Source of the DNA: a virus
Lineage: Duplodnaviria > Caudoviricetes
Virus record (IMG/VR): IMGVR_UViG_3300032216_001431
Span: 1-64,000 of that record
Strand: one strand, 5' to 3'
DNA: 64,000 nt
Position numbers and translations under genes: made by a program
Shown here: piece by piece, positions 2,046-36,847 of the stretch
Layout of the letters: the number at the start of each line of letters is the position of its first letter
How positions within the stretch are numbered: the stretch's first letter is position 1
Notes under the pieces: generated by a model
The model's database searches: none
Told to the model about the DNA's origin: nothing
The model's input: only the letters and a program-made list of their open reading frames with translations

Positions 2046-2046
2046 G

Positions 2047-2408: not shown

Positions 2409-2433
2409 GATAACTCCTATTGTTTGATTAACT

Positions 2434-3250: not shown

Positions 3251-3251
3251 G

Positions 3252-3494: not shown

Positions 3495-3546
3495 ATAGTA
3501 TAATTCTTTCTATAGATAATTTCTATATATATAAAGAAAGTGTAGC

Positions 3547-18314: not shown

Positions 18315-18595
18315 ATCTTGTTGCATTAGAAAGCGAGGTTTTCTTATTGGGAAAATGGATAAACTACGACGAACTGGAATCAACCATGTGCGTCGAAGAG
18401 TTGATTGTAACCGTTAACGCAATAAGAGAAAAGGAAAGTCGGGATCGAAAATTCTCTGCTGCTCTGCAAGGGATTGATCTTGATGAGGAAGAAGAATTAA
18501 ATGATATTACAGATTTGAAGGGACTTTCTGCAGCACAAGAGGGATTCGGTATTGGAATGGGACTTGGCTACATGGAGATTGATGAAACCTCATGA
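17976..18595 (+). CDS. tail assembly chaperone gpGT-like fusion via -1 frameshift at CCCAAAC (18272-18278)
   Basis: In-phase C-CCA-AAC slippery heptamer; the -1 frame is open from there into ORF 18347..18595. Confidence 0.8.
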
Positions 18596-21500
18596 CCCAA
18601 AATATTAACCTTAACATAGTTGGTACCGCTAACTTTCTTCCAGCCATTTCGGAAATAAAGAAACTTAAAACTGCTATGTCCGATTTGCAGAATACGCAAA
18701 TTGGTAAAGGTTTAAATAATCAATTAAATGCTCAACTTAAAAGTTATGAGCAAGATTTTCTTAAAGTAATTCAAACAACAAAAGGTTTTAATGTTGAGCA
18801 AGTTAAACTTGCTGATGCTACTGATCATTTAACAACTAAATTGTCTAGAGGTCAATTTAGTTTAGGTGAATATTATTCAATGTTTAAGCGTAGCAGAACG
18901 GGTGTTGTTGAGGAACTTAATCAAATTGCTCAGGCTCAAGCAAAAGTTGCTAAATCATTTGTTATTCCATCTCAAAAAGGTGGGTATGCTCAAGTAATCA
19001 CTGATATGTCTGGTGTTGCAGACAAGATGAAGACTGCTGAGATTTATCAAAAAGCATTAAATACGGCTATGATGGATGGCACTACTAAACTTATTAATTT
19101 TGGTAAGAATACTCAGTGGGCCGGTCGTCAGTTAACAGTTGGTCTTACAGTTCCGCTTATGGCAGCAGGTGGAGCAATGGCAGCCATGTTCTATCAAGTA
19201 GATCAAAATTTGCGTAAAATGCAATCCGTTTATGGTGTTGGTGGTAAGGCCGGTGGAGCATTTTCATCAATTCTTCCTTCACAACAAGAAATTGCTAGTA
19301 TTCGTAGTCAAGTTGTTCAACTTAGTCAGGAAATGGCTAGAACGTATGGACAAACTGCACAGGAAACTGCTGGTGTAGCCGCAGACCTTGCTGCGGCGGG
19401 ATACACAGGAAATCAACTACTTGGCCTTACAAAAACAGTAACTAAGGCTATGGTTCTTGGTGAATCTGATAGACAAACAGCAATGAAGGCAACAATTGCT
19501 CTTCAAAGTGCTTATAAATTAAGTACAGATGAGACTGCAACTGCACTTAATTTCTTTAGCGCAGCGCAGGCTGCTACTAGCACAACTATGAGGGATCTGA
19601 TTGATGCTATTCCTCGCGTTGGTCCAGTTGTAAGAAACCTTGGTGGTTCATATAAAGATACTGTAGCAATGCTTGTAGCCATGAAAGAGGGTGGTGTAGC
19701 AGCAGGTGAAGGTGCTAACGCACTTAAGAACTCTCTTGGTAGATTAATTTCTCCTACTAAAACAGCGGTAGATTCACTTAAAGTTTTTGGCGTAGATATT
19801 CTTGGAATTGTTAATAAAAATTCTGGCAATGTTGTGGGTATGATTGAATCATTGCAGCAAGCACTTTCTACATTGACGCCATTGGCTAGGCAGCAAGCGA
19901 TTACTGATATTTTTGGTAAATTCCAAATGTCTCGTATGACAGCGTTATTGGATAACTTTAATCAATCTGGCACACAGTCTGCAAAAGTTATGCAGATGAT
20001 GGGTCTTAGTGCTAAGCAACTTTCTGACATTGCAGCAAATCAGACAAAAACTCTTCAAGAATCAACTTCTGGTCAATTTAAAATTGCAATTGAAACATTA
20101 AAAGCAGATTTAATGCCAATTGGAGAAACATTCCTTCAAGTTGCTACAGTTCTTGTTAAAGCAGTTGATTTTATTGTTAAAGGATTTGACAAATTAGGAC
20201 CAATAAAATATGTTTTAGGTGGAATTTTAGGTGGAGCAGCAGTGCTTGGCCCCGTCATCATGTTCTCTGGTCTTATGGCTAACTTAGTTGGTCAAGTATT
20301 TAAACTTGTACAATTATTTAGAATGTTTAGAGGCGGCTTTGCAGAAAGCGGCGGTTGGACATCTCCAATTAAATCATTAACTAATGCATTTGCTGGTTTA
20401 AGTAATTATTTCCAAGAAGTAGATAAGGCTATGGTTGCATCTGAAGCATTATCTAAAGATCTTAATGCAACAATGATGAAACAAGAAGAATCATTAAATA
20501 TTCTTACTGCTGCTTTAACTAGATACACAAATGCTGTTGCGCGTGCTGCTGAGATAAATGGTGTTAGTGGTGGAGGAATTGTTCCTCCACCTAATGGGCC
20601 GTCTGGTGGTCCTGTGAGGCCGGGAGGGATGCCATTTGCGCCCACTGGTGGACCAACTTCACCAATAGGAATTATTGGTAATGCTACTAGGCCAACTCCA
20701 CCAGTACTAAACAATATGAGTGTAAATAAATCAGGGGCAGGGGAAGATGTAGGAAGAACTGGATTTGTTTATGAGACTCCTTCTGGAAATAAGGTTAAAG
20801 GTAATGAATTTATCCATCTTGTTACAGATAAAGCAACTCAAAATGTTTTAGGGAATCTTGCAGTTGTTCCCGGTTATTTTGATGTTCCGAATTCACCGGG
20901 TGTGGCATTAAATAGAAACTTAAAAGAAAACCCCATGCCAATTGTTCCACCATCTATGATGCAGGATGAAGAAATTGTTAAAAGAGTTTTGCGGGATCTT
21001 AAATTGTCCACGGCTGCTTGGTCTGTAGAAGCACATGCTCCAGCGATGAGCCTTGAAAATATTACAAGTTCTGAATCAAGTAAAATTGCTATGCTCCGCG
21101 CTATGCAACAGATGGGTCCATCTGTTCTACCACAATTAACGGCGTTGCATCAAAATGGGGCCACTGGTGAAGATGTCCATAATTTCTTTGCTAATGCTAT
21201 GGGTCCAGAGCAATGGCAGGCTATGCGTAAGCAAGCAGTTCAAGATGTTTTGGCTGCGTATGAGGCAGCCCAAAAATCTGTTCATGAACAACTTCTTTCA
21301 AGTGGCAGAGGGGCGCAAATTGGAACTACAGCAGGTCTACAATCTGTTACCTCACAGTTCGGTTCAGAGTTATTAAAAGAATATAAAGTAATTATTGATA
21401 ATATGGATCAACAAATAGTTACTGCATTAAGTGTTGAATCTGAAAAAACAGGACAAGGACTTTCTACTGCAATTAGAGAGGGTATGCGTAGAAATGCTGC

Positions 21501-24500
21501 TCCAGCATTAATTAACCTTGGTGCTACTGCTGCTACTCATGGAGATATGGTTGTCAAGGAATTTGAGAATTTGATTCATATTGCTCAACAGGCAATGGCA
21601 AAGATTGCAAGTCAAGTTGGATCTACTGCAGTTGAAATTTCTGCAATGTCTGGAGTTGGAACTGTTCCTGTTATTAATCAGGCTGCAGCAAGAGTTTCTA
21701 GAATTGAACAGATTGCAAAGGGGGGCTTAGGTGCAGTTAAATTAGCAACTGGTGGTAAAGTTCAAGGACCGGGTGGACCTAGAGATGATGTTATTCCCGC
21801 CATGCTTTCAGATGGTGAATATGTTGTCAATGCTAATGCTGTAGGACATTATGGGACTGGTTTCTTAGATGCCGTTAATAGTAAAAAATTAGCAGGTGGT
21901 GGTCCAGCAGGGTCGTCCCGCCTTGCAGGTATTATGGATAGCCTGTTTGGGCGAGAAAAAATGCAATCTTCTTCTCAAATACAAAACTATTTAACTTCTC
22001 CAAATAGTGCATATGCTGGGCACAACATTCAAGACTTCTTTGCCTCACGCAATAATGCAAAAAATGTGGATTTGAAGCATATTGAAGATTTGATTTCTAA
22101 TCATCAGGCTCTGGGCACGCTTGAAGAACAACAATTGATGAAAGCATTGGAAGAACATGCTTCAGGTGATTGGGGGAATAAGGGTCCATTGGCAGCCCTT
22201 GATCCTAGAATTGTTGATGCTGGTCGTGCATCATTAAATACTAGATTAAGCCAAATGCCCGGTGATACTGTAAGGCTTTATCGAGCAATTAGAACTACTC
22301 CAGAAACTGGTAAAACTGCTCCCGGTCATTATGGTTATATTCCTGCAGGTCAAGCAATTGAAGCACATCAGCCATACACTTCATATTCTTCCAATATTGA
22401 AAAGGCAATGACTTTTGTAGGAAATGATCAAATTGCTAATGCAAGAATTATTGAAGTTGACGTTCCTAAAAGTGCTATTGTCGGAATTCAAAATGCTAAC
22501 TATACTGGTAAACCGGGAGAGGGAGAATTTGTTGTTAGAACTTCTGATATTCCCGGCGGTTCAAGGTATGTAACTTTCACTGGTCTTTCTACTAAGAGAA
22601 AAAATTCTGATGATCCTCTGCTCAAATTCCTTGGTAAACCGGGTCCAGAATCTAAGGGTATGTTGCTTACAGATATTGCTAGAAGGTACACTCAGATGCC
22701 TTCACCAGAAGCATCTTCTAAAGTACCGGGTTTTTGGGATGAAAGTCAAAGGCAGTATGCTGAAACTCGCGCAGGTAATTTTAATTTCGGTCCTAGATAC
22801 AGCCCAGAACATCAATTAGAATTTTTTGGTATTACCCCAGAAGAAGTTCAAATTGCTCGCCAGCACTTGGAAGAAAAATATGGGATGCAAGTTAAAGAAC
22901 TTGCAAAACAGAAGAATAAAAAAATTATTGGTAAGAATTATGAAGATCAAACTCTTTTAAGATTGGCTTCTGATAAAGAGTTTATTCCTGCTGAATCCCC
23001 CGGTACTATGTCCACTATTTGGTCACCTAATTATATTAATCGTGCTAAGGGTGGTGGTGTTGGTCAATTCCATCATAATAGATTTTACAAATATCATGAT
23101 CGCAAATTTAAATATGAAAAAGGTGGGGAGGTTTTTGCCCACGCAGTAAACCCTATTCATTCGGGAAATTTAAAAGCATATTTACCAATAGGCTTTAAAA
23201 CAACAGAAGAAATTAATCAAGCATTAAACAATAGTAATATTGAAAACGGCGCAAATGTTCAAGAACTTATAGATCAAATATCTAAAGACAATTCAACTGA
23301 TGAAATGATTTCTCAGTTAAAAAATGCTGGATATACCGATACCGCCGCAAAAAAATATGCCAAAAAAATAAAAAATCATACTTTAGAGCAATTGAAAAAA
23401 TTTGAAGGTAAAAAAATAAATGATAGTACTTTATATAATTTAGTAGAACAATCAAAAGAAGTAGAATCAATAAAAGAAAAATTAATTAATGACGAAAATT
23501 GGATAAAATCAACTGCTGAAACAAGAATTAGTCCAAGTCTCAGAAAACTAGGTGAGGCTGGAGCAACGGTAACACTTCCAGAAGAAACAGTTAAATTAAA
23601 CGATAGATTATTAACCAGTAAAATAATTAATTCTGGCAACATGAGTTATGGCTATGATCATAAAAAAGAACAAGTTTATCGTGAATTTAATTTCAATAGC
23701 AATGGTGAAACATATAAAGCAAGGCAAGCACTTAAAGAAATTCCAAAAGCATTTACAATACCAAATAATCCAAATAGAACAAGCATAAGCGAATTAACGG
23801 CTGAAGAAGTACAGCATTTATTCACTGGAGAAAATATAAAGGGCCGAGGGTTTAGGTATTACAATTCTAATAATCGCTTTGTCGCCAGTAGCAAGGGGAT
23901 TAGGGGTATCCTTTCTAATTTAGAAGAAAACCTTCTAATTAAAACTCTAATCCGTCCACGCGCTAATGGCGGTTTTGTCAGACTTGCTGATGGTGGTATC
24001 CCAGCAATGGTTTCAAATGGTGAGTATTTCTTTGGACCAGATACCGTTAAGCATTATGGTAAAGGTTTTATGGATAATCTTAATGCTGGTAAATTTGCTA
24101 TGGGTGGTAAGATTGTTGGCCCCGGCGGTCCTAAAGACGATTTAATTCCAATGACATTACCAGAGCATTCTTATATTATTAATGCTGCTGCTACTCAAAA
24201 AATTGGTATACCAACTCTTGACGCAATTAATTCTAAGAGATTTAGTAAAGGCGGCATTCTTGGTTTTCCGACAGGAGGCGAAGCAACTGCTGAAGAAGAG
24301 CAAAGTCTTATGCAAGTTAGAGCAAGGTTGGCAAGAAAAGCGTTGAAAGCACAACAACGTGCTGAAGAAGAGAATGAAGTAAATAGGCAAGAGCATGAGG
24401 CGTTTGAGGCAAGAAAACGGGCGGCTAAAGCACAATTGCAAGCCGCAGAACAAGAATTAAAGAATGTAAGAAATAATCCCAATTCTACAGGAAAAATTAT

Positions 24501-27500
24501 AGAAGAATCACGAAGAGCAGTTCGTGAAGCCAATCAAGTGCTTCAACCTATGAGGCAAGCAGGAAGACCAATTCGTGAAGCCTATAATGCTTCTCAAGCA
24601 ACACTTCAGCGTGCGACAGAAAGATTCAATGTTCAAAGTGCTGGTATTCCCATGCATATGATTGACCCTGATGCTCCTAGAGAAAGAGGATCACTTGGTC
24701 AAAGGATCAGAGAAAGGTACAGGCCCACTCAAGGTCAGCCGCGACGAGGTTTTAGTTCAGGTATGGGTTCTATGATGGGTGGGACCGCTTTGCAGATGGC
24801 AGGATCTATGGCTGGTGGTGCTTTAGAAGCAAATGCTGGTGGTGCTACTATGGCAAGTTCAGCCTTATCCGGTGCTGGAACTGGTGCAATGATGGGTTCA
24901 ATGCTTGGCCCAGAGGGGATGCTTGCGGGTGCTGCCATCGGTGGAATTATCGGTGGAATTATGGGCCACATGGAAGAAGAACAAAGAAACCTTACAAAGG
25001 CTATTAGTGAAGCCCACCAAAAGAATATGGGATTAGTTTCAAGTATGAGTACGTCTTCTGACATATTAGCGCAACTTGGAATTAAGGTTAAATCTATTTC
25101 TGATATTAAACTTGGAGATAATGCTAAGCAGGCAGAGGCTTATTCTAGTGCAATTAATCAAGTTGCTGATGCGATGGCAAACGGTTCAGAAGCAACAAAA
25201 TCTATGATTAATTATATTAAGACTGCTACTTCTGAAGATCAAAGGAAAGCATTGGGTCAACAATTCTCAGGCGTACTTGCAGCAGGGGGAAGTGTTGAGC
25301 AAGCAACTGTTACTGCAGGAGGGGCTGCAAAGGCAGCCGGATTAAGTGGTTTGATGTCTTCAATTGCAATTAATCAATTGAAATCAGAGGCTCAAAAGGC
25401 TGCAGCATCAGGAAAATCACTTCAACTGTTTGGTGCAGAAAAGCAATTTGCTGGCGCTCAAGCGATGTTAAATAATAATGGTGGCCTTGATTTGAGTAAG
25501 TTATCAAAACAAAACTTTTCTTATTCTACTCCCAATACCGCTTCTCTTGGTGGTAGGTATGGAAGTATGGGCATGAAAAAAGTAAATGCTAATCTGGCGG
25601 GTACCTTGGGTTATTCTGGTCAAACTTTACCTGAAGGATTTATGCTTTCTTCATTAAGAGAAATTAAAGGTAAAACTGCTGAAGATATTAATGCAAAAGG
25701 TCTTGGCGGCGCTGCGGCTCTTGGAAGCAATGATGCAAATATTGCAGCAGTAGCAAAACTTTCTAAAATTACAGAAAACATGAAGCCAGAAGAAGTTGAA
25801 TCAAAAATTAACGCTTACTTGTTAAATTTAAAGAAAATACCTGATGAAGCATTTAAAGATGCTCAGAATTTACAAGATGCTTATGATCAAATTAATATTG
25901 GATTTACTAAACCAATGGAAGATGCAATTGTTAATATGAGTTCTTCTGATTTTAAACAATATATTAATGAATTTTCTACTGGAATGGGTACTGCTTCTGA
26001 TGTTATGAAAGTTGTTGCTGATAAGGTTGCTTCTGAACTTAGTCCTGAAATGCAAGCCTTGGAAGGCTCACTTGGTAACTCAACGGCTGCGTTGAGCAGG
26101 TTCTTGACAGCAGTTAATGCAATTTCTGGTATTAAATTTGATAGCGCACAAGCGCAAGAACGTGCTGCTGCTGCGATTACGGATAATCCTTCATTAGCAG
26201 CAGCAGCAGAAAAACAAACGGCCTTTGAAAAACAAGCCTCATCTATTGGCGATAAAGAATCAAAAAATATTGATGGTAGCAATAGGGTAGGCTCTTTACA
26301 AACTGCTTCTAAAAAATCTTCTGATAAGTTCGTAGCAGATCAAAAGGCTGCTCAAAAAGCATATCAACAGGAACAAGAAAGTATTCAGAATACTATTAAA
26401 GCAAAAAGTAAATATATTGATTCTATTCGTAAAGAAATGGATGCTCGTCAAAAACTTTATGATAAGAAACAACAAGGAATTGAACAAGATCTTACTTTAC
26501 AGAATTTGCAGAATGATGTTTATAGGGCGCGTACGACGGGAAGTTTGCTTGATCAGGCCGCTGCTCAAAGTGCTTATAATGCTGAATTAAATAAGCAGGC
26601 TGACCTTAAGGCTAAGCAGGCTGCTGATGAAAAAGATCAATCTAAAATTGATAAAACTGATACGCAAATTAGTACTTTGCAAGATACGCTTGATAAAATT
26701 TCTAAAAATTATGATAAAGCACAGCAAAAAGCACAAGACACTCAGGATGCAATTCAGGTTAGTTATGGAAAACAAATAGAACAAGCAAAAAAACTTGGTG
26801 ATACAACTGGCGCACAACAAGCAGCATGGTCAGATGGTTGGCAGAAACTTGTGACTGCTGCTGAGCAAGGTAAGGGTGCAACTTCTCAAGAAGTTATTGA
26901 TCTTATTGATGGGCTTACTAAATCAAGTGGTGTTGCTAAAACACAAATTATACAAGATTTTACAGAAATGCAAACAAATTTCAATAAAACTGTTGGTAAA
27001 GATGGACTTATTTTTAATGCTAACGGTACAATGACAAAACTTGGAATTCCAAATGGACAAATTTATGCTGATGAAAATGGTAATCTAACTTGGAAAGAGG
27101 CTGGTGGCAAGCCAAGGTTCGTGGACCTTGGTGGAGGTGTTGTTGTTTCAAACGCAAGTAAGCCAAAGCCACAACGAATTGGATCAGGCCCACTTGCAAA
27201 TAAACCATTACCAGCACCAGCAGCAGAAGGTGGTTATATTTCTGGACCGGGAACTGCAACTTCTGATTCCATTCCCGCTAGACTTTCAAATGGAGAGTAT
27301 GTAGTTCGTGCAAAAGCAGTAAATCATTATGGTTCAGGTATGATGGATGCTATTAATGAAAGAAGGTTTGCAGAAGGCGGTCTTGTCGGTCCAGATAATG
27401 TAAGTAGTATGCAAGATGGTAGTGGCAAACTTCCTAAAATTAACTTTGGTTATTCTGTTCCTTTTGCACGCGGCGGCGCTGTGTCGCCTAATGAAGGTGG

Positions 27501-29625
27501 GCCGGGTCCAAGGTATACCCCACCCGATCCACCGTCCACGTCCAGTACCGGACCTAGTGAAAATTCTGGAGGTAACGGTTCTCCTTCTGCACCTAGACCA
27601 CTTTGGTATCCTCCAGTAGGTGCAGATACTGTTATTAATGGTAGATATTATTTGAAGAGTGGAAGGTTACATGCAGAGTCATGGAATACGGGTGCTGCAG
27701 GTAGTGGTGTGAATGATATTCCAGCGTCGCTTGGAACTTATTTTTATTCCCTACTTGATGGTATTGTTTCTTATGTTGGAAAAGCACCATATTCTCCGTT
27801 TTATCTTCCCGGCTATGTAAAAGTTAAAAATAATATAGGTGGAGAGATTAGATATGCTCATATGAATCCAATGGTTTCAAGTGGGCAAAAAGTAAGGGCA
27901 GGGGACGCTCTTGGTGTGGCGGCAATACAGTCAAGTCCCGTACTAGGAAGGACAATGACTGCCCCTCATCTACATTTTGCTTGGCATGATATGAATAGTC
28001 TTATTCAAAGGGGTGCGGGTGGTAGAGTTCCTTGGCTAGATAAAAATGGAAAGTCAGTTTTTGGGGAAGGTTCCCCTAGTGAGAATGCTGGAAATGGTCA
28101 AGGTGCAGTAGGTTCAATTAATTATTCACAAGTTCAATTGGTTAAATTGCTTCAAAAAGCAGGTTTTCATGATGTAGGTCTTAGGATGGCGTGGGCAATT
28201 GCTATGCGTGAATCTGGGGGTAACGCATCTGCACGTTCACCTAAGAAAGGCACTTATCCTAATGGTACTTATGATGCTGGGCTTTATCAATTAAATTCTT
28301 CTAATTATAAAGGTTGGAAGATAGATACTAAAAAACTTTATGACGGAATGTATCAGGCAAAGTTTGTTTATGATAAAACAAAAAATATGTCTAAGGATAC
28401 ATTGGCGTGGGGTCTTAATCCAGATGGAACAACTAATGCTGTTTATTATGGTCATTGGTCAAAAGAAATGATTAGTAATTATATAACTAAACCGTTCAAA
28501 AAATATTGGGAAATGTTCCCAGCAGTTCTTAATATGGCTGGAGGTGCAATACCACCTACTTCTAACCCTAAGAATCCTAATTCTTTAAGTTCTTCTTCAG
28601 GTACAGGTTCAAGTGGATCGGGTACAGGTTCAAGTGCAACAAGTGCATCTTTTAGCAATAAACCAAAGCCACCTCCAGAAGAAATAGTAGATTATCATTT
28701 CTCAGTTCCAGAAACTTCCGGTGGAACTAATTCTAACGCTAATTATAATGCGTTAATTAAAAGAACACAGTTGAAAACTCCTGCTCCTTGGTATAAGAAA
28801 ATGGCAAATGAGGCTTCTTCTTATGTAGGAAAAGTTGATTATTCTGGTCCTGCTGGAAGCAGTACAACTCATCGACGTAAGGGCAAGACTGCAGATTCTT
28901 CTGCTGTTCCCGGCGATTCAGATACTTATCATTATTTAAAATCAAAGTACAGTGGTAAAAAAGATTCTCATAAAAATAAAATCTATATTGATGGCGTCGG
29001 TGGTTGGAATGCTCCAGAGTTTACTTGGAGAATGTTAAGTAAGTACGGTAAGATGAAAAAGTTTGCTGGTCAGGATGCTCAGAGTTCAATGGGAAGCCCT
29101 GTTAAGAAGGGTAAGGAGAGGCTTGGAGATTTAATTTTTAAGGATGAGGGCAATTACAACCGTGTTGGAATATATGTAGGAGATGGCAAATATGTGTTTG
29201 CAGATTCAGTATTATCAGGTACTGTAAAACGTCCCTCTAAAAATTATTTTAGAGCGAGAAGATTCTTTGCTGATGGTGGTCCAGTGTCTGGACCGGGTGG
29301 TGCTAAAGATGATAAGATTCCGGCAATGCTTTCTAATGGAGAGTATGTAATTAAAGCAGATTCCGTAACTTCAAAAACAAAACCATTTTTAGATATGGTT
29401 AATGCTGGATCATTTAATCCTAAGTTTAATTCTCCAACGTCAAGAATTTCAACTCCAACTGGGTTGGCTGATACTGCAAGTGCGGGTGCGTCAACTAACA
29501 ATGTAGAGTATAATTTAACTGTAACAGTAGAAAAAACTAATGCTTCTCCAGAAGACATTGCAAATGTTGTTATTCAAACTCTTAAGAGAAAAGAAAAAAC
29601 TAATAAAACACATAGGATTCTTTAA
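18592..29625 (+). CDS. tape measure protein, multi-domain (TMP core, ART-like, glycine zipper, M23, SLT, degenerate NlpC/P60)
   Basis: Follows chaperones; N-terminal TP901-like helical core (GKNTQWAGRQLTVGLTVP, EGANALK); motifs listed under findings. Confidence 0.93.
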   Translation: MTQNINLNIVGTANFLPAISEIKKLKTAMSDLQNTQIGKGLNNQLNAQLKSYEQDFLKVIQTTKGFNVEQVKLADATDHLTTKLSRGQFSLGEYYSMFKRSRTGVVEELNQIAQAQAKVAKSFVIPSQKGGYAQVITDMSGVADKMKTAEIYQKALNTAMMDGTTKLINFGKNTQWAGRQLTVGLTVPLMAAGGAMAAMFYQVDQNLRKMQSVYGVGGKAGGAFSSILPSQQEIASIRSQVVQLSQEMARTYGQTAQETAGVAADLAAAGYTGNQLLGLTKTVTKAMVLGESDRQTAMKATIALQSAYKLSTDETATALNFFSAAQAATSTTMRDLIDAIPRVGPVVRNLGGSYKDTVAMLVAMKEGGVAAGEGANALKNSLGRLISPTKTAVDSLKVFGVDILGIVNKNSGNVVGMIESLQQALSTLTPLARQQAITDIFGKFQMSRMTALLDNFNQSGTQSAKVMQMMGLSAKQLSDIAANQTKTLQESTSGQFKIAIETLKADLMPIGETFLQVATVLVKAVDFIVKGFDKLGPIKYVLGGILGGAAVLGPVIMFSGLMANLVGQVFKLVQLFRMFRGGFAESGGWTSPIKSLTNAFAGLSNYFQEVDKAMVASEALSKDLNATMMKQEESLNILTAALTRYTNAVARAAEINGVSGGGIVPPPNGPSGGPVRPGGMPFAPTGGPTSPIGIIGNATRPTPPVLNNMSVNKSGAGEDVGRTGFVYETPSGNKVKGNEFIHLVTDKATQNVLGNLAVVPGYFDVPNSPGVALNRNLKENPMPIVPPSMMQDEEIVKRVLRDLKLSTAAWSVEAHAPAMSLENITSSESSKIAMLRAMQQMGPSVLPQLTALHQNGATGEDVHNFFANAMGPEQWQAMRKQAVQDVLAAYEAAQKSVHEQLLSSGRGAQIGTTAGLQSVTSQFGSELLKEYKVIIDNMDQQIVTALSVESEKTGQGLSTAIREGMRRNAAPALINLGATAATHGDMVVKEFENLIHIAQQAMAKIASQVGSTAVEISAMSGVGTVPVINQAAARVSRIEQIAKGGLGAVKLATGGKVQGPGGPRDDVIPAMLSDGEYVVNANAVGHYGTGFLDAVNSKKLAGGGPAGSSRLAGIMDSLFGREKMQSSSQIQNYLTSPNSAYAGHNIQDFFASRNNAKNVDLKHIEDLISNHQALGTLEEQQLMKALEEHASGDWGNKGPLAALDPRIVDAGRASLNTRLSQMPGDTVRLYRAIRTTPETGKTAPGHYGYIPAGQAIEAHQPYTSYSSNIEKAMTFVGNDQIANARIIEVDVPKSAIVGIQNANYTGKPGEGEFVVRTSDIPGGSRYVTFTGLSTKRKNSDDPLLKFLGKPGPESKGMLLTDIARRYTQMPSPEASSKVPGFWDESQRQYAETRAGNFNFGPRYSPEHQLEFFGITPEEVQIARQHLEEKYGMQVKELAKQKNKKIIGKNYEDQTLLRLASDKEFIPAESPGTMSTIWSPNYINRAKGGGVGQFHHNRFYKYHDRKFKYEKGGEVFAHAVNPIHSGNLKAYLPIGFKTTEEINQALNNSNIENGANVQELIDQISKDNSTDEMISQLKNAGYTDTAAKKYAKKIKNHTLEQLKKFEGKKINDSTLYNLVEQSKEVESIKEKLINDENWIKSTAETRISPSLRKLGEAGATVTLPEETVKLNDRLLTSKIINSGNMSYGYDHKKEQVYREFNFNSNGETYKARQALKEIPKAFTIPNNPNRTSISELTAEEVQHLFTGENIKGRGFRYYNSNNRFVASSKGIRGILSNLEENLLIKTLIRPRANGGFVRLADGGIPAMVSNGEYFFGPDTVKHYGKGFMDNLNAGKFAMGGKIVGPGGPKDDLIPMTLPEHSYIINAAATQKIGIPTLDAINSKRFSKGGILGFPTGGEATAEEEQSLMQVRARLARKALKAQQRAEEENEVNRQEHEAFEARKRAAKAQLQAAEQELKNVRNNPNSTGKIIEESRRAVREANQVLQPMRQAGRPIREAYNASQATLQRATERFNVQSAGIPMHMIDPDAPRERGSLGQRIRERYRPTQGQPRRGFSSGMGSMMGGTALQMAGSMAGGALEANAGGATMASSALSGAGTGAMMGSMLGPEGMLAGAAIGGIIGGIMGHMEEEQRNLTKAISEAHQKNMGLVSSMSTSSDILAQLGIKVKSISDIKLGDNAKQAEAYSSAINQVADAMANGSEATKSMINYIKTATSEDQRKALGQQFSGVLAAGGSVEQATVTAGGAAKAAGLSGLMSSIAINQLKSEAQKAAASGKSLQLFGAEKQFAGAQAMLNNNGGLDLSKLSKQNFSYSTPNTASLGGRYGSMGMKKVNANLAGTLGYSGQTLPEGFMLSSLREIKGKTAEDINAKGLGGAAALGSNDANIAAVAKLSKITENMKPEEVESKINAYLLNLKKIPDEAFKDAQNLQDAYDQINIGFTKPMEDAIVNMSSSDFKQYINEFSTGMGTASDVMKVVADKVASELSPEMQALEGSLGNSTAALSRFLTAVNAISGIKFDSAQAQERAAAAITDNPSLAAAAEKQTAFEKQASSIGDKESKNIDGSNRVGSLQTASKKSSDKFVADQKAAQKAYQQEQESIQNTIKAKSKYIDSIRKEMDARQKLYDKKQQGIEQDLTLQNLQNDVYRARTTGSLLDQAAAQSAYNAELNKQADLKAKQAADEKDQSKIDKTDTQISTLQDTLDKISKNYDKAQQKAQDTQDAIQVSYGKQIEQAKKLGDTTGAQQAAWSDGWQKLVTAAEQGKGATSQEVIDLIDGLTKSSGVAKTQIIQDFTEMQTNFNKTVGKDGLIFNANGTMTKLGIPNGQIYADENGNLTWKEAGGKPRFVDLGGGVVVSNASKPKPQRIGSGPLANKPLPAPAAEGGYISGPGTATSDSIPARLSNGEYVVRAKAVNHYGSGMMDAINERRFAEGGLVGPDNVSSMQDGSGKLPKINFGYSVPFARGGAVSPNEGGPGPRYTPPDPPSTSSTGPSENSGGNGSPSAPRPLWYPPVGADTVINGRYYLKSGRLHAESWNTGAAGSGVNDIPASLGTYFYSLLDGIVSYVGKAPYSPFYLPGYVKVKNNIGGEIRYAHMNPMVSSGQKVRAGDALGVAAIQSSPVLGRTMTAPHLHFAWHDMNSLIQRGAGGRVPWLDKNGKSVFGEGSPSENAGNGQGAVGSINYSQVQLVKLLQKAGFHDVGLRMAWAIAMRESGGNASARSPKKGTYPNGTYDAGLYQLNSSNYKGWKIDTKKLYDGMYQAKFVYDKTKNMSKDTLAWGLNPDGTTNAVYYGHWSKEMISNYITKPFKKYWEMFPAVLNMAGGAIPPTSNPKNPNSLSSSSGTGSSGSGTGSSATSASFSNKPKPPPEEIVDYHFSVPETSGGTNSNANYNALIKRTQLKTPAPWYKKMANEASSYVGKVDYSGPAGSSTTHRRKGKTADSSAVPGDSDTYHYLKSKYSGKKDSHKNKIYIDGVGGWNAPEFTWRMLSKYGKMKKFAGQDAQSSMGSPVKKGKERLGDLIFKDEGNYNRVGIYVGDGKYVFADSVLSGTVKRPSKNYFRARRFFADGGPVSGPGGAKDDKIPAMLSNGEYVIKADSVTSKTKPFLDMVNAGSFNPKFNSPTSRISTPTGLADTASAGASTNNVEYNLTVTVEKTNASPEDIANVVIQTLKRKEKTNKTHRIL
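21742..29412 (+). repeat. dispersed protein repeat AxGG.V.GPG...D.IPA.LS.GEY.. in the TMP (21742-21888, 23983-24093 partial, 24094-24240, 27220-27366, 29266-29412)
   Basis: Five copies seen in the translation. Confidence 0.9.
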
Positions 29626-30677
29626 TGGCATTCGGTAAACCAGTATTACAAATTTATACCAGCGATCCAACTATAATTGGTTCAAACCCTATTGGTTATA
29701 CTTTAACTGATCATAATCGTCAACCCCTGCAGGTTGCTTATGAAACAATTGAAAATTCTGCTCGTATGGCTAATGGAACGCTTCGTAGATATATTACTGC
29801 TAATAAAAAGAAAATTGGTATTTCTTGGGATATGGTTCCAGCGGCAGGTGGGTATAATTTTACTGCTGACTCGAACCTTGGTGCTGCTTGGCTTAAATCA
29901 TTTTATGAAGAAAATATTTATAAGCCAGTATGGATTAAACTAACATACGCAGAAGAAGGATGGAGGTTTTCTAACAATCAAACAGCAACTACTAAATTTA
30001 TGTCTACAAATTCAACATTTAATAATTCAAATGATAATAGTCTAATTACGTCAACACCATTTTATATTTCTGCTTTCGCATTTTCTAGTTTTACAAGTGG
30101 TTCTGGTACAGCAAGTATAACAACAACTATTAATCATAATATTTCTGCTAATTCAGAAGTTTATGTTACTGGAGTAAATCAATTATTTAATGGAACTTGG
30201 ATCGTTTCTTCTTCTGCCGCACCAAATGTATTCACTTTTAATTTTAGAGGAAACGGAAATGCTTCTGCAACATTTAAAATAAATTCTTATAATCAGTCTG
30301 GCAATACTGCTTCATTTAATGTTGATAACAATGCTTTTGTAAACAGTGGTGCAACAATTTCAATTACAAATTCTCAACCTATTTTAGGTTCTAGTATTAA
30401 TGGAACATGGACGGTAACTGGTAATAAAACTGGTCAAACTTATTTTACCGCTTCATCAACTACAAGTCAGACTGCTAAGGGGCAATATGGAGATGCAACT
30501 ATAATTACTTCTAGTTCTTATTCAGGATCACCAAGCACATTATCACTAGCCCAAACGGGACTGGCAGTTAGCACAGATGTACTTAAAGTTTTTATGACAA
30601 GTTTTAACTATGATATAGTTAATCGATTATCAGTGACAGATATTGTCAACATGAATATTGAATTTACGGAGATATAA
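29625..30677 (+). CDS. distal tail (Dit-like) protein with inserted beta domains
   Basis: First gene after TMP; RMANGTLRRY; two NGTW.V repeats; ends with EFTEI. Confidence 0.7.
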   Translation: MAFGKPVLQIYTSDPTIIGSNPIGYTLTDHNRQPLQVAYETIENSARMANGTLRRYITANKKKIGISWDMVPAAGGYNFTADSNLGAAWLKSFYEENIYKPVWIKLTYAEEGWRFSNNQTATTKFMSTNSTFNNSNDNSLITSTPFYISAFAFSSFTSGSGTASITTTINHNISANSEVYVTGVNQLFNGTWIVSSSAAPNVFTFNFRGNGNASATFKINSYNQSGNTASFNVDNNAFVNSGATISITNSQPILGSSINGTWTVTGNKTGQTYFTASSTTSQTAKGQYGDATIITSSSYSGSPSTLSLAQTGLAVSTDVLKVFMTSFNYDIVNRLSVTDIVNMNIEFTEI

Positions 30678-33600
30678 TGCTTTCTCTTTCAGGAAATTCA
30701 GAAACAGCATTTGCTGCATTAAATTCACTTAATGTAAACCCGCTTGTGTATGCTGAATGGAATTATAATAATATTGTAAAGCCATATACAGTTCATTCTT
30801 CTAATACTTCATCTCTTAATGCTGCAAGTGGTTTAAATATTTCCGCATCTTGGTCTAGGCGTAATAGTGGAACTGTAAGCCTTCTTTCAAACGGTGGCGA
30901 GATTAATGAAATTAATACTTCTGGAAGTTGCCTTAAACTTTCAACTAATTCTAAGTCAGACAATGATACTTTTTCATCGAGTATAACTTTGCCATCAGGA
31001 TCTGGATATTATAAAATAATTCTTTATTTAAAAAGTTATATGAAAAATGTTTATGGAGAAAATGCACCAATAAAAAATATATCTATTCAAAATGCGGGCG
31101 CCGGTTCATTTACTGGGAGTGTTAGGTACAATATTATACCTGTAAATAATAATGCTAAAAGACCTATGCTAGATTATAATAATTCAATTAGTGGGTCTTC
31201 TACTCTTACTTCTGCTTCTGGTGCAAACATATCATGGTCTGCTTCTATTCAAAGCGCAGTGGCGTTTGACATTTATAGATCTAAAAATAATACATCGCTT
31301 ATGCCATATTTAACAACAATCCCAGCAATTGCTGAAAATATTTCTAGTAGTTCTTATACATATAATGACGATTTTTCACAAAATCCCACAACTATAAAAT
31401 ATAATCCAACGCAAAATATGAAAATTTTTGTTAACCCAACAGCAAGAGTTCTTAATTCTTCAAGTCCTGTAGAAAATCTTCAACATTACACAAGAATTGT
31501 TTCAGAGCAAACCGGGACAATTGAAAAAATTTCTAATTCTATTGAATTGGATGGGTCCAAGTACTATCGTGTAGAAGTTTTTGTTGGAAGTACTTCTACA
31601 TTTACGCAAATAGTTTTAGATATTTCTACCCAATGTCCTTTTATTAATGGTAGTTTATTGTTGTGTAATGCAGAAATGTTTAAAATAGATGGTTGGAATT
31701 TTTCTACATCAGATTATTATCCAATAGAATCAGTTTTTGATTCCTACAGGCCGGGAGAAGCATTACTTCATCCATACCTTCAAACAAATGATAGGTATGT
31801 GAATTATGGACAGAATAATCAAAGTTTAAAACCTGTATCTTCAATATTTTTTAGTAACGATGAATTTTTTGATGGTGCTTATCCATACAAACAAGCACAC
31901 AATTCAATTTTTAATAGATTTAAATATTATGTTTCTCCAAACGATCTTGATACCTCCACTGTAACTGTAAGGGCGCAGTATAAAAAATATTTAGATATAA
32001 ATAAAATTGTTATTAAAACATCTAATGCAATTGAAGATATGACAAATGTTTCTGGTAGTATACAAATTCTGGGTCCAAATTATTCAGTTTTATCTACAAT
32101 TGTGCTTCCAGCAGGGACGTTTGATCAGAGTGGTATAGCGGTAGCATATTTTAATGGTATAACTTGGTCTGCTTCAAGTGCTGAGTCTGGTAGAGGTTCT
32201 TGGGTTCCACCTACGCTAACTAATTCTGGAATTTTTCAAGATGTAACTTCAAGTGTTACGGGGATTTCTTATATTACCAATCAACCTAAAGCATCAAGTC
32301 AAAGGTTAAAGAATACTAATCCTAAAACGACTGCCCTTGATAGGGTTCATGTTATAGAAATTTCCCCAAGACTTGAATTGGATATATCAGATATTGTTCA
32401 AGATTTTTCTGTAAATAAAATGATGGATGATTCAGAATCTGAAGCGGCTTTTCCAATAGGATATATGAATGGTAATCAAGGATCAATAAATATTAGTAAT
32501 ATTCCTGTGTATAAAAATAATTTTCCTTTTACAATATTTGATAATTTATCATCTGCTGCAACAATTTCTGATATTATTCGTGAAAATGTAAAATTTACAG
32601 TTGGTCTGATTTCTCCAACAAATGATTTTACAGACTATGTTCCATTTATGACTATGTATTCAGATTCTTGGTCGATAAAAGATTTAGATACAATAACTGT
32701 TGATCTTTATGATCCAGCAAAATATTTAATGAGTTATGATGCACCAGATTATTTTTGTCAATCAGAAGAAATTTTTACAACAATAACAAACTTATTTGAT
32801 ATATGTGGGTTTAGTGATTATGATTATAATGGTCTTAATCAAATTTTAAAACAAAAAAATATAAAAATTAATGCATTTTATTGTGATAGAAAACAAACAA
32901 TAATTGAAGTACTTAGATCGTTCTTTGTGGCACATCAAATAGCAGCAGCCTTTGACGAATATGGAATACTTAGATTTAAAGATCTTGAAGATTATTTGTA
33001 TCAATATACAAGTAATAATTTTAGTCCAGATTTTTCAGTTAGCGACATCCCCTTGGTAATAAATAAATCATCTGGTTCTGTTTATTATGAAGCAAATTTA
33101 ATAAAAGATTCTTATAGTTCAAATGTAGAACAAAAAAAAGGAAAAATTACAATAAATTTTACAGAACCTGTAAGAAATTTTACTGATAGTAAGCCTGTTG
33201 CTAATTCTATAAATGCTAGAAGAACTTCTACTTCTACAAATCAAGTTTTTACAGAATCTAATCAATCAGCATTAGTAAGAAGTTATTCGTCAAAATCTAT
33301 TAAGGGTGCTGAAAATTATTTTTATGTTGATCCAAAAATTCTTACAAGCCAGACACACGTTGGAAGTCTTCTTACAGAATCTGGAATGGCTTTTCTTCAA
33401 GGAGAATTGATTTCATGGGCGGGGCTTGAGTATAATTTTAGTGGTTCTTCTGGGGCTAAACCTGTACAATCAATAAACAAATTAATTTATAGTTATGATG
33501 AATGTTTTAGAACTTCTGATGAAATGATTTCTACGCATCCTTCTTTAACTAATGTTGAGTGGCACCCAACAGGCAAAGTTGTTGGAGTTCAAAGAGGTTT

Positions 33601-35227
33601 AAAAAATACTAAACCAAGAAATCACATTATATTTGATGATAGTACAAATAAAACAAATAGTGCTTTAAGTCCATCTAATAATTTTTCTTCTATTATTATA
33701 TATAATAATTCAAATGGAAATTATGCTTCTGGAACACCGGCAGCAAAAGCATCATATGGAGATTCTGCTGTAACTTTTAAAGATAATATTGCAAAATTTA
33801 TGGTACACAAACCAAAAACTGGTAAAAAACATGTATTAGCATTAACACCTAAATATAATTCATTGCAAGGTGAGTATGCCGCCCCAGTTTCTGCAAGTAA
33901 TTTTGATTTTTTTCAATTTGTTTTTACTGGTCCAAATTTAACTAATCAAAAATTTGCTGCAAATGGGGACGAATCTATTGTAGAAATAGGTTTTTATATA
34001 AATCATCTAACTAGCCCCCTATTGTTTGGTATAAGAAATGTAAAAAATAAATCAGTTTTGGCTGTTAATGAATTTTCTGTTTCAGGTGTAAAACCTAAGA
34101 CATCAAGCAATCAGAATCATCAATCTCATAGTTCCCCATTTCAAACATTAGGAAAAAATGTTTTCGATGGATTACCACATAGAATTGGTTTATGGATAAA
34201 TTACGAAAACTCTACTTTTTATGTATATGTAAATCAACATCAATATGGCCCATATCCACTTATTGGAAGCCGTAACAGTGGGATTGCAAAATCAAAAACT
34301 TCTACTTGGGGGGTGTATGTTGAAAACCTTGAAAAAACATTTATGAATACTCAACACGATGAAAAAACTTTGAGCCTTTTTGTTCATGAAATGTATGCTT
34401 ATGATTATAAAAGTTTAGGCGAAATGCAATATGGTCATACCAATCTATATCCACCAGCAATAACAGATTACAATTTTCATTGGCAGAGTAAAAACTATTT
34501 AAATGAAATAATAAAAAATAATCCCAATTGTGAACCTAAGTATTATTTTTGGGGTCCGTTGGATTTGTTTGGAGTTAAAATTTATGATAACGTGGTCTTT
34601 GGTACGAGTCCAGTTTTTCAAAATACTTTGAATATAGAAAAAATTGGTTATTCAGGTGATTGGCCGGGTCCAAATGGTGTTTTTAAAAAAACAACAATTA
34701 AAGATATTGCTATGTCAAGTATATTTTCAACACCTTTTAGATTTTCAATGATGCTTGTAAATAATAATAAAAACAACCAACTTGTTTGGTTATGTAAAAC
34801 TAACACAGTAAAAGGCGAACCAGATGTAACTCCATTTACCTTAGAAGCAAATTTTATGAAACAAACAGACGAAATTACAGTTGAAAAAATTATTAATCCA
34901 ACCAACAAAGATGGTGGTGTAATGTTAAATACATTGTGGATTCAATCAAAAGAAGAAGCAGAAAACCTTTTATCAAAATCTGTCCATTTTGCTAATTCTT
35001 TTAATACAACTGTTAACCTGCAAATTTTTGGAAACCCGCTGGTTCAAGTTGGTGACATTTGTAAATTTGTTTATACTGCTAAAAGGATTGGTTATGATCC
35101 AGAAAGTTTAAACCCTAATCCCGTTTATTTTTTAGTTAAACAAGTTAATCAAGATTTCACAGGCGGTTTGACAACAGGCTTAACTTTAAAACCTTTATTT
35201 AATACAAATTCAATAAGCATAGCATGA
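30677..35227 (+). CDS. large minor tail / baseplate hub protein
   Basis: Synteny; FDEYG.LRF and GNPLVQVGD motifs. Confidence 0.75.
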   Translation: MLSLSGNSETAFAALNSLNVNPLVYAEWNYNNIVKPYTVHSSNTSSLNAASGLNISASWSRRNSGTVSLLSNGGEINEINTSGSCLKLSTNSKSDNDTFSSSITLPSGSGYYKIILYLKSYMKNVYGENAPIKNISIQNAGAGSFTGSVRYNIIPVNNNAKRPMLDYNNSISGSSTLTSASGANISWSASIQSAVAFDIYRSKNNTSLMPYLTTIPAIAENISSSSYTYNDDFSQNPTTIKYNPTQNMKIFVNPTARVLNSSSPVENLQHYTRIVSEQTGTIEKISNSIELDGSKYYRVEVFVGSTSTFTQIVLDISTQCPFINGSLLLCNAEMFKIDGWNFSTSDYYPIESVFDSYRPGEALLHPYLQTNDRYVNYGQNNQSLKPVSSIFFSNDEFFDGAYPYKQAHNSIFNRFKYYVSPNDLDTSTVTVRAQYKKYLDINKIVIKTSNAIEDMTNVSGSIQILGPNYSVLSTIVLPAGTFDQSGIAVAYFNGITWSASSAESGRGSWVPPTLTNSGIFQDVTSSVTGISYITNQPKASSQRLKNTNPKTTALDRVHVIEISPRLELDISDIVQDFSVNKMMDDSESEAAFPIGYMNGNQGSINISNIPVYKNNFPFTIFDNLSSAATISDIIRENVKFTVGLISPTNDFTDYVPFMTMYSDSWSIKDLDTITVDLYDPAKYLMSYDAPDYFCQSEEIFTTITNLFDICGFSDYDYNGLNQILKQKNIKINAFYCDRKQTIIEVLRSFFVAHQIAAAFDEYGILRFKDLEDYLYQYTSNNFSPDFSVSDIPLVINKSSGSVYYEANLIKDSYSSNVEQKKGKITINFTEPVRNFTDSKPVANSINARRTSTSTNQVFTESNQSALVRSYSSKSIKGAENYFYVDPKILTSQTHVGSLLTESGMAFLQGELISWAGLEYNFSGSSGAKPVQSINKLIYSYDECFRTSDEMISTHPSLTNVEWHPTGKVVGVQRGLKNTKPRNHIIFDDSTNKTNSALSPSNNFSSIIIYNNSNGNYASGTPAAKASYGDSAVTFKDNIAKFMVHKPKTGKKHVLALTPKYNSLQGEYAAPVSASNFDFFQFVFTGPNLTNQKFAANGDESIVEIGFYINHLTSPLLFGIRNVKNKSVLAVNEFSVSGVKPKTSSNQNHQSHSSPFQTLGKNVFDGLPHRIGLWINYENSTFYVYVNQHQYGPYPLIGSRNSGIAKSKTSTWGVYVENLEKTFMNTQHDEKTLSLFVHEMYAYDYKSLGEMQYGHTNLYPPAITDYNFHWQSKNYLNEIIKNNPNCEPKYYFWGPLDLFGVKIYDNVVFGTSPVFQNTLNIEKIGYSGDWPGPNGVFKKTTIKDIAMSSIFSTPFRFSMMLVNNNKNNQLVWLCKTNTVKGEPDVTPFTLEANFMKQTDEITVEKIINPTNKDGGVMLNTLWIQSKEEAENLLSKSVHFANSFNTTVNLQIFGNPLVQVGDICKFVYTAKRIGYDPESLNPNPVYFLVKQVNQDFTGGLTTGLTLKPLFNTNSISIA

Positions 35228-35938: not shown

Positions 35939-36847
35939 ATGAATTTAACTGGGACGTATCGAGTTACCTCGTCTGGCTTTTTAATTGGTGAATACCAGAA
36001 CATGATAACCACAAATGGTTTATTGGCAATTAATCAATATCTTGCAGGTCTTATTCCTAGTTGGGCTGGTTCCATTGCTGTCGGTAGTTTGGTTACAAAC
36101 AATACAGATCCATCTACAACTGAACTTGATTATGAATTAAAAAGATATCCAGTAACACTTAAGTCTTATAGAACGGTATCAAGTTCTGTTCATCAAATTT
36201 CTTTAAAAGCAACAATTGATCCAGAATCAACATTTAAAATTTATGAATTGGGTGTTTTTCCAGCAGTAATTAATGATGCAACAAACACGAATCATTATCC
36301 ATTTTCAGATTTTTCAGAAAAATTGAGTGGTTCTAGTGCATGGTATATTTCTGGTATTCCAGCAACAACATCCCTTGTTGCGAGAGCGGGAATTTCTTCA
36401 GTAACACTTACCACTCCTTCAACTGCAAGCAGTACAGTTAACATAAATACTACAAACTATACAGAAATAGACTCATTAAAAATTTTATTTTATCCAAACA
36501 ATGCAATTTCTTCTGGTTCTTTTACTGTAACACTAGGTGATGATGCCTTAGTAACAAATTATTGGACAGCATCTGGATCATTTTTGTCAGCAGCATCTGG
36601 TGTCTATACCAGTGCAAGCCTTGGATTTGTTTCAAAACCCTCATCTTTTTCAAATTCTGTGAGTTCTGCTTCAATAAATTATACAGGAACCGGATCGATC
36701 CTCCTTGACTATATTAAATGGGTGACTGGAGATATAAAAACAACAGATTTTAAATTAGTTAGTAGAACAACATCTTCAGCCACACCATTGTTTACAAAAA
36801 CATACGGACAACCTATGGAAATTGAGTATTACGTTGAGGTTACATAA
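35939..36847 (+). CDS. minor tail / baseplate protein
   Basis: N.ITTNG...YLAG, IYELG.F motifs; TGATATAAT at 35902-35910. Confidence 0.7.
   Translation: MNLTGTYRVTSSGFLIGEYQNMITTNGLLAINQYLAGLIPSWAGSIAVGSLVTNNTDPSTTELDYELKRYPVTLKSYRTVSSSVHQISLKATIDPESTFKIYELGVFPAVINDATNTNHYPFSDFSEKLSGSSAWYISGIPATTSLVARAGISSVTLTTPSTASSTVNINTTNYTEIDSLKILFYPNNAISSGSFTVTLGDDALVTNYWTASGSFLSAASGVYTSASLGFVSKPSSFSNSVSSASINYTGTGSILLDYIKWVTGDIKTTDFKLVSRTTSSATPLFTKTYGQPMEIEYYVEVT

Follow-up and report, generated by a model that had tools for sequence, protein, structure and literature searches.

In the phage tail, tape measure proteins (TMPs) fill the lumen, their C-terminus lying in the hub, and their expulsion precedes that of the DNA (PMC11445458, PDB 8ZDO, PMC10038345, PMC12617516). 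Here we describe the TMP of an uncultured phage of the Caudoviricetes, encoded on the + strand at 18592..29625 of a window of 64,000 nucleotides that comprises the first 64 kb of a 95,487-bp phage genome (IMG/VR record IMGVR_UViG_3300032216_001431). Nucleotide positions are those of the window, aa positions are those of the 3677-residue protein, and we name the latter the window TMP. With a probability of roughly 70%, we read it as a genuine siphophage TMP that has grown into a mosaic carrier, in which variable slots would be interspersed with a conserved core that acts as the ruler (aa 1-1040) and with module B, a second body, helical and membrane-active, and every slot would be fenced by one conserved unit of 55-60 residues. 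The slots hold an ADP-ribosyltransferase (ART)-like module (A1), an orphan cassette (A2) and a stretch of wall-hydrolase-like domains (module C).

The closest described systems share some of these elements. Mycobacteriophage TMPs have an embedded Rpf-like motif 1 and a motif 3 that is a peptidoglycan hydrolase (TM4 gp17; PMC1796659). Like the predicted enzymatic modules of the window TMP, these are embedded in a ruler protein, where they aid infection, and actinophage TMPs also carry the unit; the mycobacteriophage motifs are however small and wall-acting, with no delimiting repeat described and no cytoplasm-type enzyme such as an ART (PMC1796659). In T5, the C-terminal 42 residues of pb2* dock between subunits of the hub protein pb3, and a cut after R1127 frees the muralytic pb2C (PMC10038345). 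The order of elements in T5 pb2 is like that of the window TMP, with a helical body, a hydrophobic segment, a hook-like end, the cut (in T5), a hydrolase and a C-terminal plug. Unlike the window TMP, pb2 has one joint, one cargo and no detectable homology to the unit. Lambda gpH matures to gpH* and gpHC, with about 14 kDa removed at a glycine-rich region (PMC12617516); a degenerate unit adjoins that cleavage region, as a single weak copy and without enzymatic cargo. The TMP of Pseudomonas phage JBD30 (gp46) has sequence homology to the unit, in a single copy about 90 residues from its C-terminus (PMC11445458), and that of mycobacteriophage Douge (gp16) has two copies, so that multi-copy proteins also occur in a cultured phage (PDB 8ZDO sequence). 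These two proteins have one or two copies where the window TMP has five, and they are without an ART or an orphan cargo.

Large virion proteins that enter with the DNA and include ready-made enzymes, mostly ARTs, are known from T4 Alt, from the MuF-VIP2 fusions (PMC7302621) and from the polyvalent proteins (PMC5512222). Unlike the window TMP, all of these are packaged in the head. The ARTs of polyvalent proteins are of the H-Y-D type, while A1 has the R / S-x-S / E-x-E pattern, and the polyvalent-protein paper leaves tape measure proteins unmentioned (PMC5512222). A Pfam scan of the window TMP finds no zincin MPTase domain of the kind present in polyvalent proteins. The window TMP would work like a polyvalent protein without being a member of that class, as it is a tail-lumen protein with a TMP core. 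Another parallel is in the T-even gp38 adhesins, where glycine-rich motifs delimit hypervariable segments and serve as recombination borders; that is a different protein, with much shorter segments, which serve receptor recognition and not cargo. Already known are wall-hydrolase motifs in TMPs, the processing of the T5 and lambda TMPs, and, among proteins packaged in the head, ARTs and polyvalent proteins. In the searchable literature, we found neither the unit as a family, nor its multi-copy use as a module border, nor an ART inside a TMP, and searches for virion proteomics gave no relevant paper.

A conserved unit occurs five times in the window TMP

A BLASTP comparison of 80-residue windows against the whole window TMP identifies five related units at aa 1048-1106, 1785-1839, 1833-1890, 2874-2932 and 3554-3614, with pairwise E values between 1e-7 and 5e-19. 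An earlier note on this DNA, made from its letters alone, had reported five repeats, and this self-comparison agrees with their nucleotide positions; it had given them a length of about 49 residues, which has to be corrected to 55-60. The short glycine motifs of that note separate into two groups. LAGGG (21889), RANGG (23959), FSKGG (24241) and FAEGG (27367) are edges of the repeat, while RAKGG, YEKGG, FPTGG and FARGG stand alone.

All copies are on the + strand. Repeat 1, the first copy of what we also name the hook or joint unit, is at 21733..21909, has a profile hidden Markov model (HMM) score of 96.7, and is also supported by the alignments. Repeats 2 and 3 are in tandem at 23944..24261 (HMM scores 67.0 and 86.4), where repeat 2 is without the GPGG segment and is fused head-to-tail to repeat 3, and repeat 3 has a degenerate GEY core. 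Repeat 4 is at 27211..27387 (HMM score 98.3). Repeat 5, the terminal copy, is at 29251..29433 (HMM score 95.3) and has an orthologous terminal copy in the family alignment; it is followed by FNPKF in place of the xAxGG, as in most relatives, and from its end to the end of the protein there are 63 residues.

Each unit opens, and mostly also closes, with a hydrophobic-A-x-G-G pentapeptide, and the consensus reads [hydrophobic-A-x-GG] x3 GPGG x3 D x IPAMLSxGEYVV ... YG..F.D..N ... [hydrophobic-A-x-GG]. In an alignment of 32 copies (from which, as from one further alignment, the TMP of relative P0005 was left out), positions A10, G12, G13, G17, G19, D24, I26, A28, S31, G33, E34, Y35, G46 and N54 are at least 90% conserved. 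Within the pentapeptide, A, G and G show little or no variation, while F, L, Y, R, K and A are all found as the residue that precedes the Ala. The five copies of the window TMP share only 61-72% nucleotide identity over 94 nt; they are therefore of old date, maintained by selection on the protein and not duplicated recently. The pattern [FLYMW]A.GG occurs 9 times in the window TMP where 0.7 are expected, and none of 1000 shuffled sequences reaches 9; six of the nine occurrences are edges of the long units.

The unit is absent from Pfam and NCBIfam, which give nothing usable for single repeats. An AlphaFold2 (AF2) monomer model of the unit alone has a beta-hairpin and two helices at low confidence (predicted local distance difference test, pLDDT, of 56), and a fold search with this low-confidence model found no match at a Z of 2 or more.

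Related phages exchange modules at the unit borders

We gathered relatives from IMG/VR, from an exhaustive HMMER search and from contig look-ups. The TMP cores compared are 42-95% identical. The copy number of the unit ranges from one in the TMP of L007 (1996 aa) to six in that of P0002 (L017; 3816 aa), with four copies in P0005 (3411 aa) and P0008 (L014, truncated; 3519 aa), and five in L008 (3727 aa), P0003 (L015; 4018 aa) and P0006 (L013; 4971 aa). The core identity with the window TMP is 43% for L008 over aa 5-1106, and 50% for L007 over aa 1-691 only. Common to the family are the core, module B, and the terminal repeat with its tail. The variable parts are the interval from repeat 1 to repeats 2/3, and the interval from repeat 4 to the last repeat.

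The closest complete relative, L017/P0002, locates the borders at nucleotide resolution. The two genes are 93.6% identical over gene nt 1-4535 (to aa 1511), and the identity breaks exactly at the codons of YEKGG. After YEKGG, about 285 codons cannot be aligned, and then there is an island of 88% identity that is exactly repeats 2 + 3. The genes are 73% identical from there up to the end of repeat 4, cannot be aligned over the M23 module, and are again 82% identical over the stretch that begins with repeat 5 and runs to the stop codon. Compared with L015, repeats 2 + 3 have 85% nucleotide identity while their flanks are diverged or cannot be aligned, and the homology blocks with L008 and P0002 terminate at repeat 4. 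A further case is a single slot. The window TMP, P0002 and P0004 have three mutually unrelated cassettes of 250-320 residues in one place, with a left border after ...KYE[KD]GG and a right border at the x-A-x-GG that opens repeat 2.

At the xAxGG edges, entire modules are gained, lost or exchanged between related phages, and the unit is conserved far better than the sequence between its copies. The earlier note had taken the motifs for module borders and recombination joints, a reading that stands: the DNA breaks coincide with YEKGG, with repeats 2 + 3, with the end of repeat 4 and with the beginning of repeat 5, and cassettes are swapped. Its idea that cargo in related TMPs would be swapped at the motifs agrees with the swaps at YEKGG and at the repeat 2 xAxGG, leaving the right border of the M23/SLT exchange off-repeat. 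When six TMPs of the family are compared, their homology blocks have 192 internal ends, of which 66 are inside a repeat or at most 15 residues from one where 20 are expected, an enrichment whose significance is inflated by the phylogenetic dependence of the 15 pairs compared. The single-slot case is independent of this statistic.

Could the internal copies be scars of serial gene fusion, that is, leftover TMP C-termini with no present function? Ordinary TMPs carry the unit near their C-terminus, and module B looks like another TMP body, complete with a hydrophobic segment, as fusions would produce. By HMM score, the internal copies (86-98, with the truncated repeat 2 at 67) are however conserved like the terminal one, no DNA outside the core is better conserved between diverged phages than repeats 2 + 3, and all internal copies are without the C-terminal tail that follows the true terminal copy. 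We consider the fusion scars very unlikely.

Relatives carry other cargo. This includes a HAD phosphatase, tandem ARTs, and SLT, NlpC/P60 and M23 domains in varied order; in more distant unit-bearing TMP-like proteins, a LysM domain directly follows a unit.

The unit is widespread in tape measure proteins

Amongst the sequences of solved structures, a profile built from the five copies matches Douge gp16 twice (964-1015 and 1412-1466, E 1.3e-27) and JBD30 gp46 once (1019-1065, E 1e-7). Residues 1022-1066 of JBD30 gp46 are a predicted "hook" of two helices and a beta-hairpin, which the JBD30 authors liken to the last 42 residues of T5 pb2*, inserted between hub subunits after tube opening; they also propose a cut directly after the hook (PMC11445458). 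The region of the unit is unresolved in both the JBD30 and the Douge structures, and its role there is a prediction (PMC11445458; PDB 8ZDO). What is resolved in the hubs of JBD30, Douge and T5 are the C-terminal 33-42 residues of the TMP (PMC11445458; PDB 8ZDO; PMC10038345).

By TBLASTN, 174 cultured-phage records match through the unit only, all of them inside TMP genes, and their hosts include Gordonia, Mycobacterium, Corynebacterium, Paracoccus, Morganella, Stenotrophomonas, Ralstonia and Vibrio. PHROG TMP profiles match the unit near the C-terminal ends of the profiles. With 8000 candidates scored, the 32-copy profile matches at least 4273 protein clusters. The best 119 clusters have 2-6 copies each, with the last copy usually 50-75 residues from the C-terminus. 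Besides Douge, cultured phages with several units include Gordonia phage GAL1 and cluster-L phages such as LeBron. By these comparisons, the unit is a near-C-terminal element of ordinary TMPs, ancient, very widespread and often in several copies. The mention in the earlier note of single copies in other TMPs was an understatement, as multi-copy arrays are common.

The unit often co-occurs with peptidoglycan hydrolase domains. This frequent neighbourhood, together with a strand-helix-helix order and a YG...L...N pattern that recall LysM by eye, would be expected if the units were LysM-like beta-alpha-alpha modules that bind wall or membrane and target the neighbouring hydrolases to peptidoglycan. 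Against it, Pfam LysM gives no match to the units even at E 10, the LysM of related proteins is a separate domain just after the unit, and units also flank an ART, a HAD phosphatase and a helical body. We find this identification highly improbable.

The units could also mark a processed polyprotein, with a cleavage site at the xAxGG edge of each unit, a virion that holds hook-ended fragments, and cargo freed into the envelope or the cytoplasm. The phages with described processing give some reason to think so. In T5, the cut after R1127 is followed by AEGG, in a protein of 1219 residues where A.GG appears only twice. In lambda, gpH is cut in the glycine-rich region about 690-730, just before a degenerate unit at 732-793 (FATGG at 734-738, HRGEFVF, and YATGG at 779-783), of which residues 748-784 match the iterated profile with 15.6 bits and E 3e-6 for a five-sequence set. 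To this one can add the cut that the JBD30 authors propose right behind the hook, the near invariance of A, G and G in the pentapeptide over 32 copies, and the description of TMP processing as common. On the other side, T5 has no detectable homologue of the unit (pb2 does not match the unit profile, even iterated on 325 copies), and the residue preceding the Ala is variable (F, L, Y, R, K, A). The T5 and lambda observations are post hoc leads and not tests of processing at the joints. We keep the polyprotein as a tentative proposal; by analogy with these phages, a cut at one or more of the joints may occur, at somewhat less than even odds.

As a separate observation on T5 pb2 (L012 12122-15781), residues 1127-1131 place A-E-G-G after the cut, and the S-G-E-L-S-Y-L of the upstream hook loosely recalls the S-x-G-E-Y-V-V of the unit, a likeness without profile support.

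Another way to look at the unit is architectural, where the repeats either align the TMP chains, three (or six) in number, with one another or attach to the tube or hub, the modules stay tethered, and the swaps reflect the tolerance of linkers. The whole 55-residue unit is strongly conserved, which is more than a short site would need; the hook is analogous to the T5 pb2* end that docks in the hub; the terminal copy is at a fixed distance from the C-terminus; and the unit does not fold confidently alone, as one would see for a partner-dependent element. It is less easily squared with five hooks per chain, when the hub has docking sites for one hook set, and it leaves the clustering of variable modules between units unexplained. 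Such a role for the repeats is plausible to us without being the expected outcome. It is compatible with, and not exclusive of, a mosaic carrier with fenced slots.

An ART-like module and an orphan cassette share the first variable interval

Module A1 (aa 1110-1512; 21919..23127, + strand) is an ART-like domain followed by a helical tail, a His/Tyr/Lys-rich linker and the YEKGG joint (23113-23127). The exhaustive search of 1.84e9 proteins finds homologues of A1 in 7 clusters, all TMP-like. In 8 aligned homologous modules from 6 proteins, R1228/R1231, S1264-x-S1266 and E1310-x-E1312 are invariant, and by this alignment A1 keeps the full predicted catalytic set of an ART. The AF2 model of A1 has medium confidence (pLDDT 62). 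Compared with known structures by VIA-align, it matches C3bot2 (Z 6.4, root-mean-square deviation 3.7, 147 aligned), Vis (Z 6.2), iota-like CPILE-a (Z 6.0) and Certhrax (Z 5.8), and further HopU1, ART2.2, C2-I and VIP2; about 40 of the 50 top rows are ARTs, at Z scores that are moderate, about 6. Foldseek gives cholera, LT and pertussis toxins as weak top rows (E 8e-3 to 1e-1). No curated ART family in Pfam or NCBIfam matches A1 even at E 1-10, and because of that we call A1 a divergent R-S-E-type ART-like domain, a putative new family outside the named ones. The ART-like module of the earlier note is in this way supported, both by fold matches and by invariant residues.

In two relatives, there is more to observe around this module. 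In the 4971-residue TMP of P0006 (L013 6001-20916), the interval from the first to the second repeat holds a domain like HAD-type acid phosphatases and an ART-like module in three tandem copies, and all three carry R / SxS / ExE. The linker that closes A1, GG-x5-HHxRFYKYHxRKxKY-x-GG at 23047-23127, has GG at both ends; it is a tandem duplicate in P0003 and stands upstream of an ART module in P0005, like a mobile spacer.

Module A2 (aa 1513-1784; 23128..23943, + strand) is an AT-rich orphan cassette with a GC content of 0.305. The exhaustive search and Pfam/NCBIfam find no homologue of A2, and the ESM Atlas gives no usable match. The AT-rich module without known relatives that the earlier note had noticed is therefore real in both respects. 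The A2 slot is filled by unrelated cassettes in P0002 and P0004. Two of the slot cassettes, at 23128-23943 of the window and at L017 7534-8397, are unrelated in sequence and both AT-rich (GC 0.305 and 0.303), and the rest of the gene and genome has a GC content of 0.37-0.40.

The probable membrane body, the wall-hydrolase-like domains and the absence of cysteine

Module B (aa 1891-2873; 24262..27210, + strand) is a long body of helices, in which aa 2092-2131 (24865-24984) form a glycine zipper and hydrophobic segment. PF13488 matches the zipper with E 4.9e-6, hydropathy agrees, and so the zipper proposed in the earlier note is confirmed. Module B has homology of 28-49% in P0002, P0003, P0005, P0006, P0008 and L008, and L007 has a weak match of 178 residues. 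We read module B as part of the machine and not as cargo.

Module C (aa 2933-3553; 27388..29250, + strand) includes an M23-like domain, an SLT_3 domain, a Ser/Gly-rich linker and a degenerate NlpC/P60-like domain. The M23-like domain at aa 3042-3134 (27715-27993) scores 35-38 bits against a Pfam cut-off of 28.7. Its HxH (PHLHF), Asp and mid-domain His align with the family, and the first His of HxxxD is replaced (GSGVNDI against the HNGI-DI of 9gy1_A), so the domain may be non-canonical or inactive. The SGVNDI is also present in P0006. The SLT_3 lysozyme-like domain at aa 3187-3267 scores 35-37 bits against a cut-off of 27, and has the E-S pair in MRESGG. The NlpC/P60-like domain at about aa 3494-3554 (29071-29253) scores 17.7-20 bits, below its Pfam cut-off of 23. 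Its catalytic Cys is replaced by Ala (GGWNAPEF) and its His by Arg (NRVGIYVG), while L008 and P0003 keep both Cys and His, and by these substitutions it appears to be a dead copy. The terminal NlpC/P60 copy of P0002 has an Asp at the Cys position. Of the wall hydrolases announced in the earlier note, M23 and SLT_3 are above the Pfam cut-offs and stand; NlpC/P60 falls below, without its catalytic Cys and His, and does not.

We also considered self-processing at Gly-Gly by the M23 domain, and ruled it out, as the units are retained in L008, P0002 and P0003, which have no M23 domain.

The window TMP has no Cys in 3677 residues where 33 are expected (Poisson about 4e-15), compared with 0.9% Cys in the other long open reading frames (ORFs) of the + strand. 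In the relatives, the only Cys residues are in or beside NlpC/P60-type domains; by alignment, those of L008 and P0003 are the catalytic Cys.

The gene and its genomic setting

The gene at 18592..29625 (+ strand) is an open frame of 3677 codons. PF10145 matches aa 246-442 with E 6.6e-32 and 111.5 bits (Pfam cut-off 33.2), TIGR01760 matches the N-terminal third with E 1.4e-30 and 106.5 bits (NCBIfam cut-off 28.8), and eleven PHROG TMP families match the core. The order of genes on the + strand is portal, head protease, capsid, an Ig-domain tube-like protein, two small chaperone-sized ORFs and the TMP, and downstream there are a 350-aa ORF at 29625-30677 and then a 1516-aa minor tail protein. Because of the family-model matches and the gene position, we identify the ORF as the TMP of a siphovirus-type tail. 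The earlier note had named it a TMP of this length and place, which the open frame, the family models and the gene order bear out.

The conserved core (aa 1-1040; 18592..21711, + strand) is defined by identity in the relatives, by PHROG matches and by hydropathy, with hydrophobic segments at aa 181-201 and aa 507-573. At the other end, the C-terminal tail (aa 3615-3677; 29434..29622, + strand) is kept in the complete family members, including the 1996-aa L007 TMP; the identity of aa 3557-3675 to the C-termini is 42% for L007 and about 32% for L008. By its position, and by analogy with the tails resolved in hubs, it would be the hub-plug segment. If the whole protein were an extended helix, 3677 residues at 0.15 nm would give a tail of about 550 nm.

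A megablast of the gene against 50,697 phage records finds no cultured relative by nucleotide match, and the nearest cultured TMP cores, at about 30% identity, are those of Streptomyces phages. Among 185,579 species genomes, the sole relative is L019, a 110-kb contig binned with an uncultured cyanobacterium and possibly itself a phage. It encodes a 1773-aa TMP with 35% core identity, one full unit and one degenerate unit. As a hint of a cyanobacterial host it is weak and insufficient to name a host. We discarded the possibility of an assembly chimera, as the same architecture is present on independent contigs. Two very large tail-region proteins follow the TMP, at 30677-35227 (1516 aa) and 36847-43113 (2088 aa), with PHROG matches only to "minor tail" or unknown function.

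A tail that may carry ready-made enzymes

In the mosaic carrier that we propose, the TMP would exit C-terminus first, and the order of the polypeptide would match the order of the host barriers: the plug and wall hydrolases come first, the glycine-zipper helical membrane body second, the orphan cassette with the ART third, and after these the core and finally the DNA. Storage in extended form inside a narrow tube, with refolding once outside, would fit the absence of Cys. The ART would be a ready-made modifier of the host, present in few copies per virion, like T4 Alt or the MuF-fused VIP2 toxins. As A1 looks like an ART, the tail probably carries ready-made enzymes into the host, and we infer that the cargo would be delivered before gene expression because TMP ejection is established in other phages.

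Several points weigh against the mosaic carrier. The phage is uncultured and known here from its sequence alone. Folded domains of 40 kDa do not fit the tail lumen, so that one must suppose a refolding step once the protein is ejected. As an ART depends on NAD+, it would have to enter the cytoplasm, which no TMP segment is known to do. Of the three hydrolase domains, two look impaired. The T5 cleavage parallel is at the level of a pattern and post hoc, as T5 pb2 is unmatched by the unit profile. For A1, the medium confidence of the model, the moderate Z scores and the silence of the curated families count on the same side. For the joints, so do the dependence amongst the pairs in the block-end enrichment, the tendency of high-scoring segment pair ends to gravitate to conserved islands for technical reasons, and the exchange of M23 (window TMP) for SLT (L008), whose right border is away from any repeat.

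A more far-reaching proposal would make the unit a general interface of siphophage tails, cut at its trailing xAxGG. The lumen would then store separate hook-tagged proteins that leave in a fixed order before the DNA (wall enzymes, membrane channel, cytoplasmic effectors such as the ART), with the effectors swapped as cassettes. We regard this proposal as doubtful.

TMPs are usually seen as rulers with an occasional small wall-hydrolase motif, and the mosaic architecture of the window TMP goes beyond that. The phenomenon of module joints looks general. As the 55-residue unit is present in thousands of TMP clusters, metagenomes can be screened for tail-delivered cargo by a simple rule on sequence, and the place of the unit at or beside the cleavage regions of T5 pb2 and lambda gpH offers a candidate cleavage site in a decades-old question, that of the protease and, for lambda, of the exact site. 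The joints also suggest insertion points for foreign modules in laboratory phages. An ART with an intact catalytic set in a TMP would extend the injected host-takeover enzymes from the head (T4 Alt, MuF fusions, polyvalent proteins) to the tail lumen.

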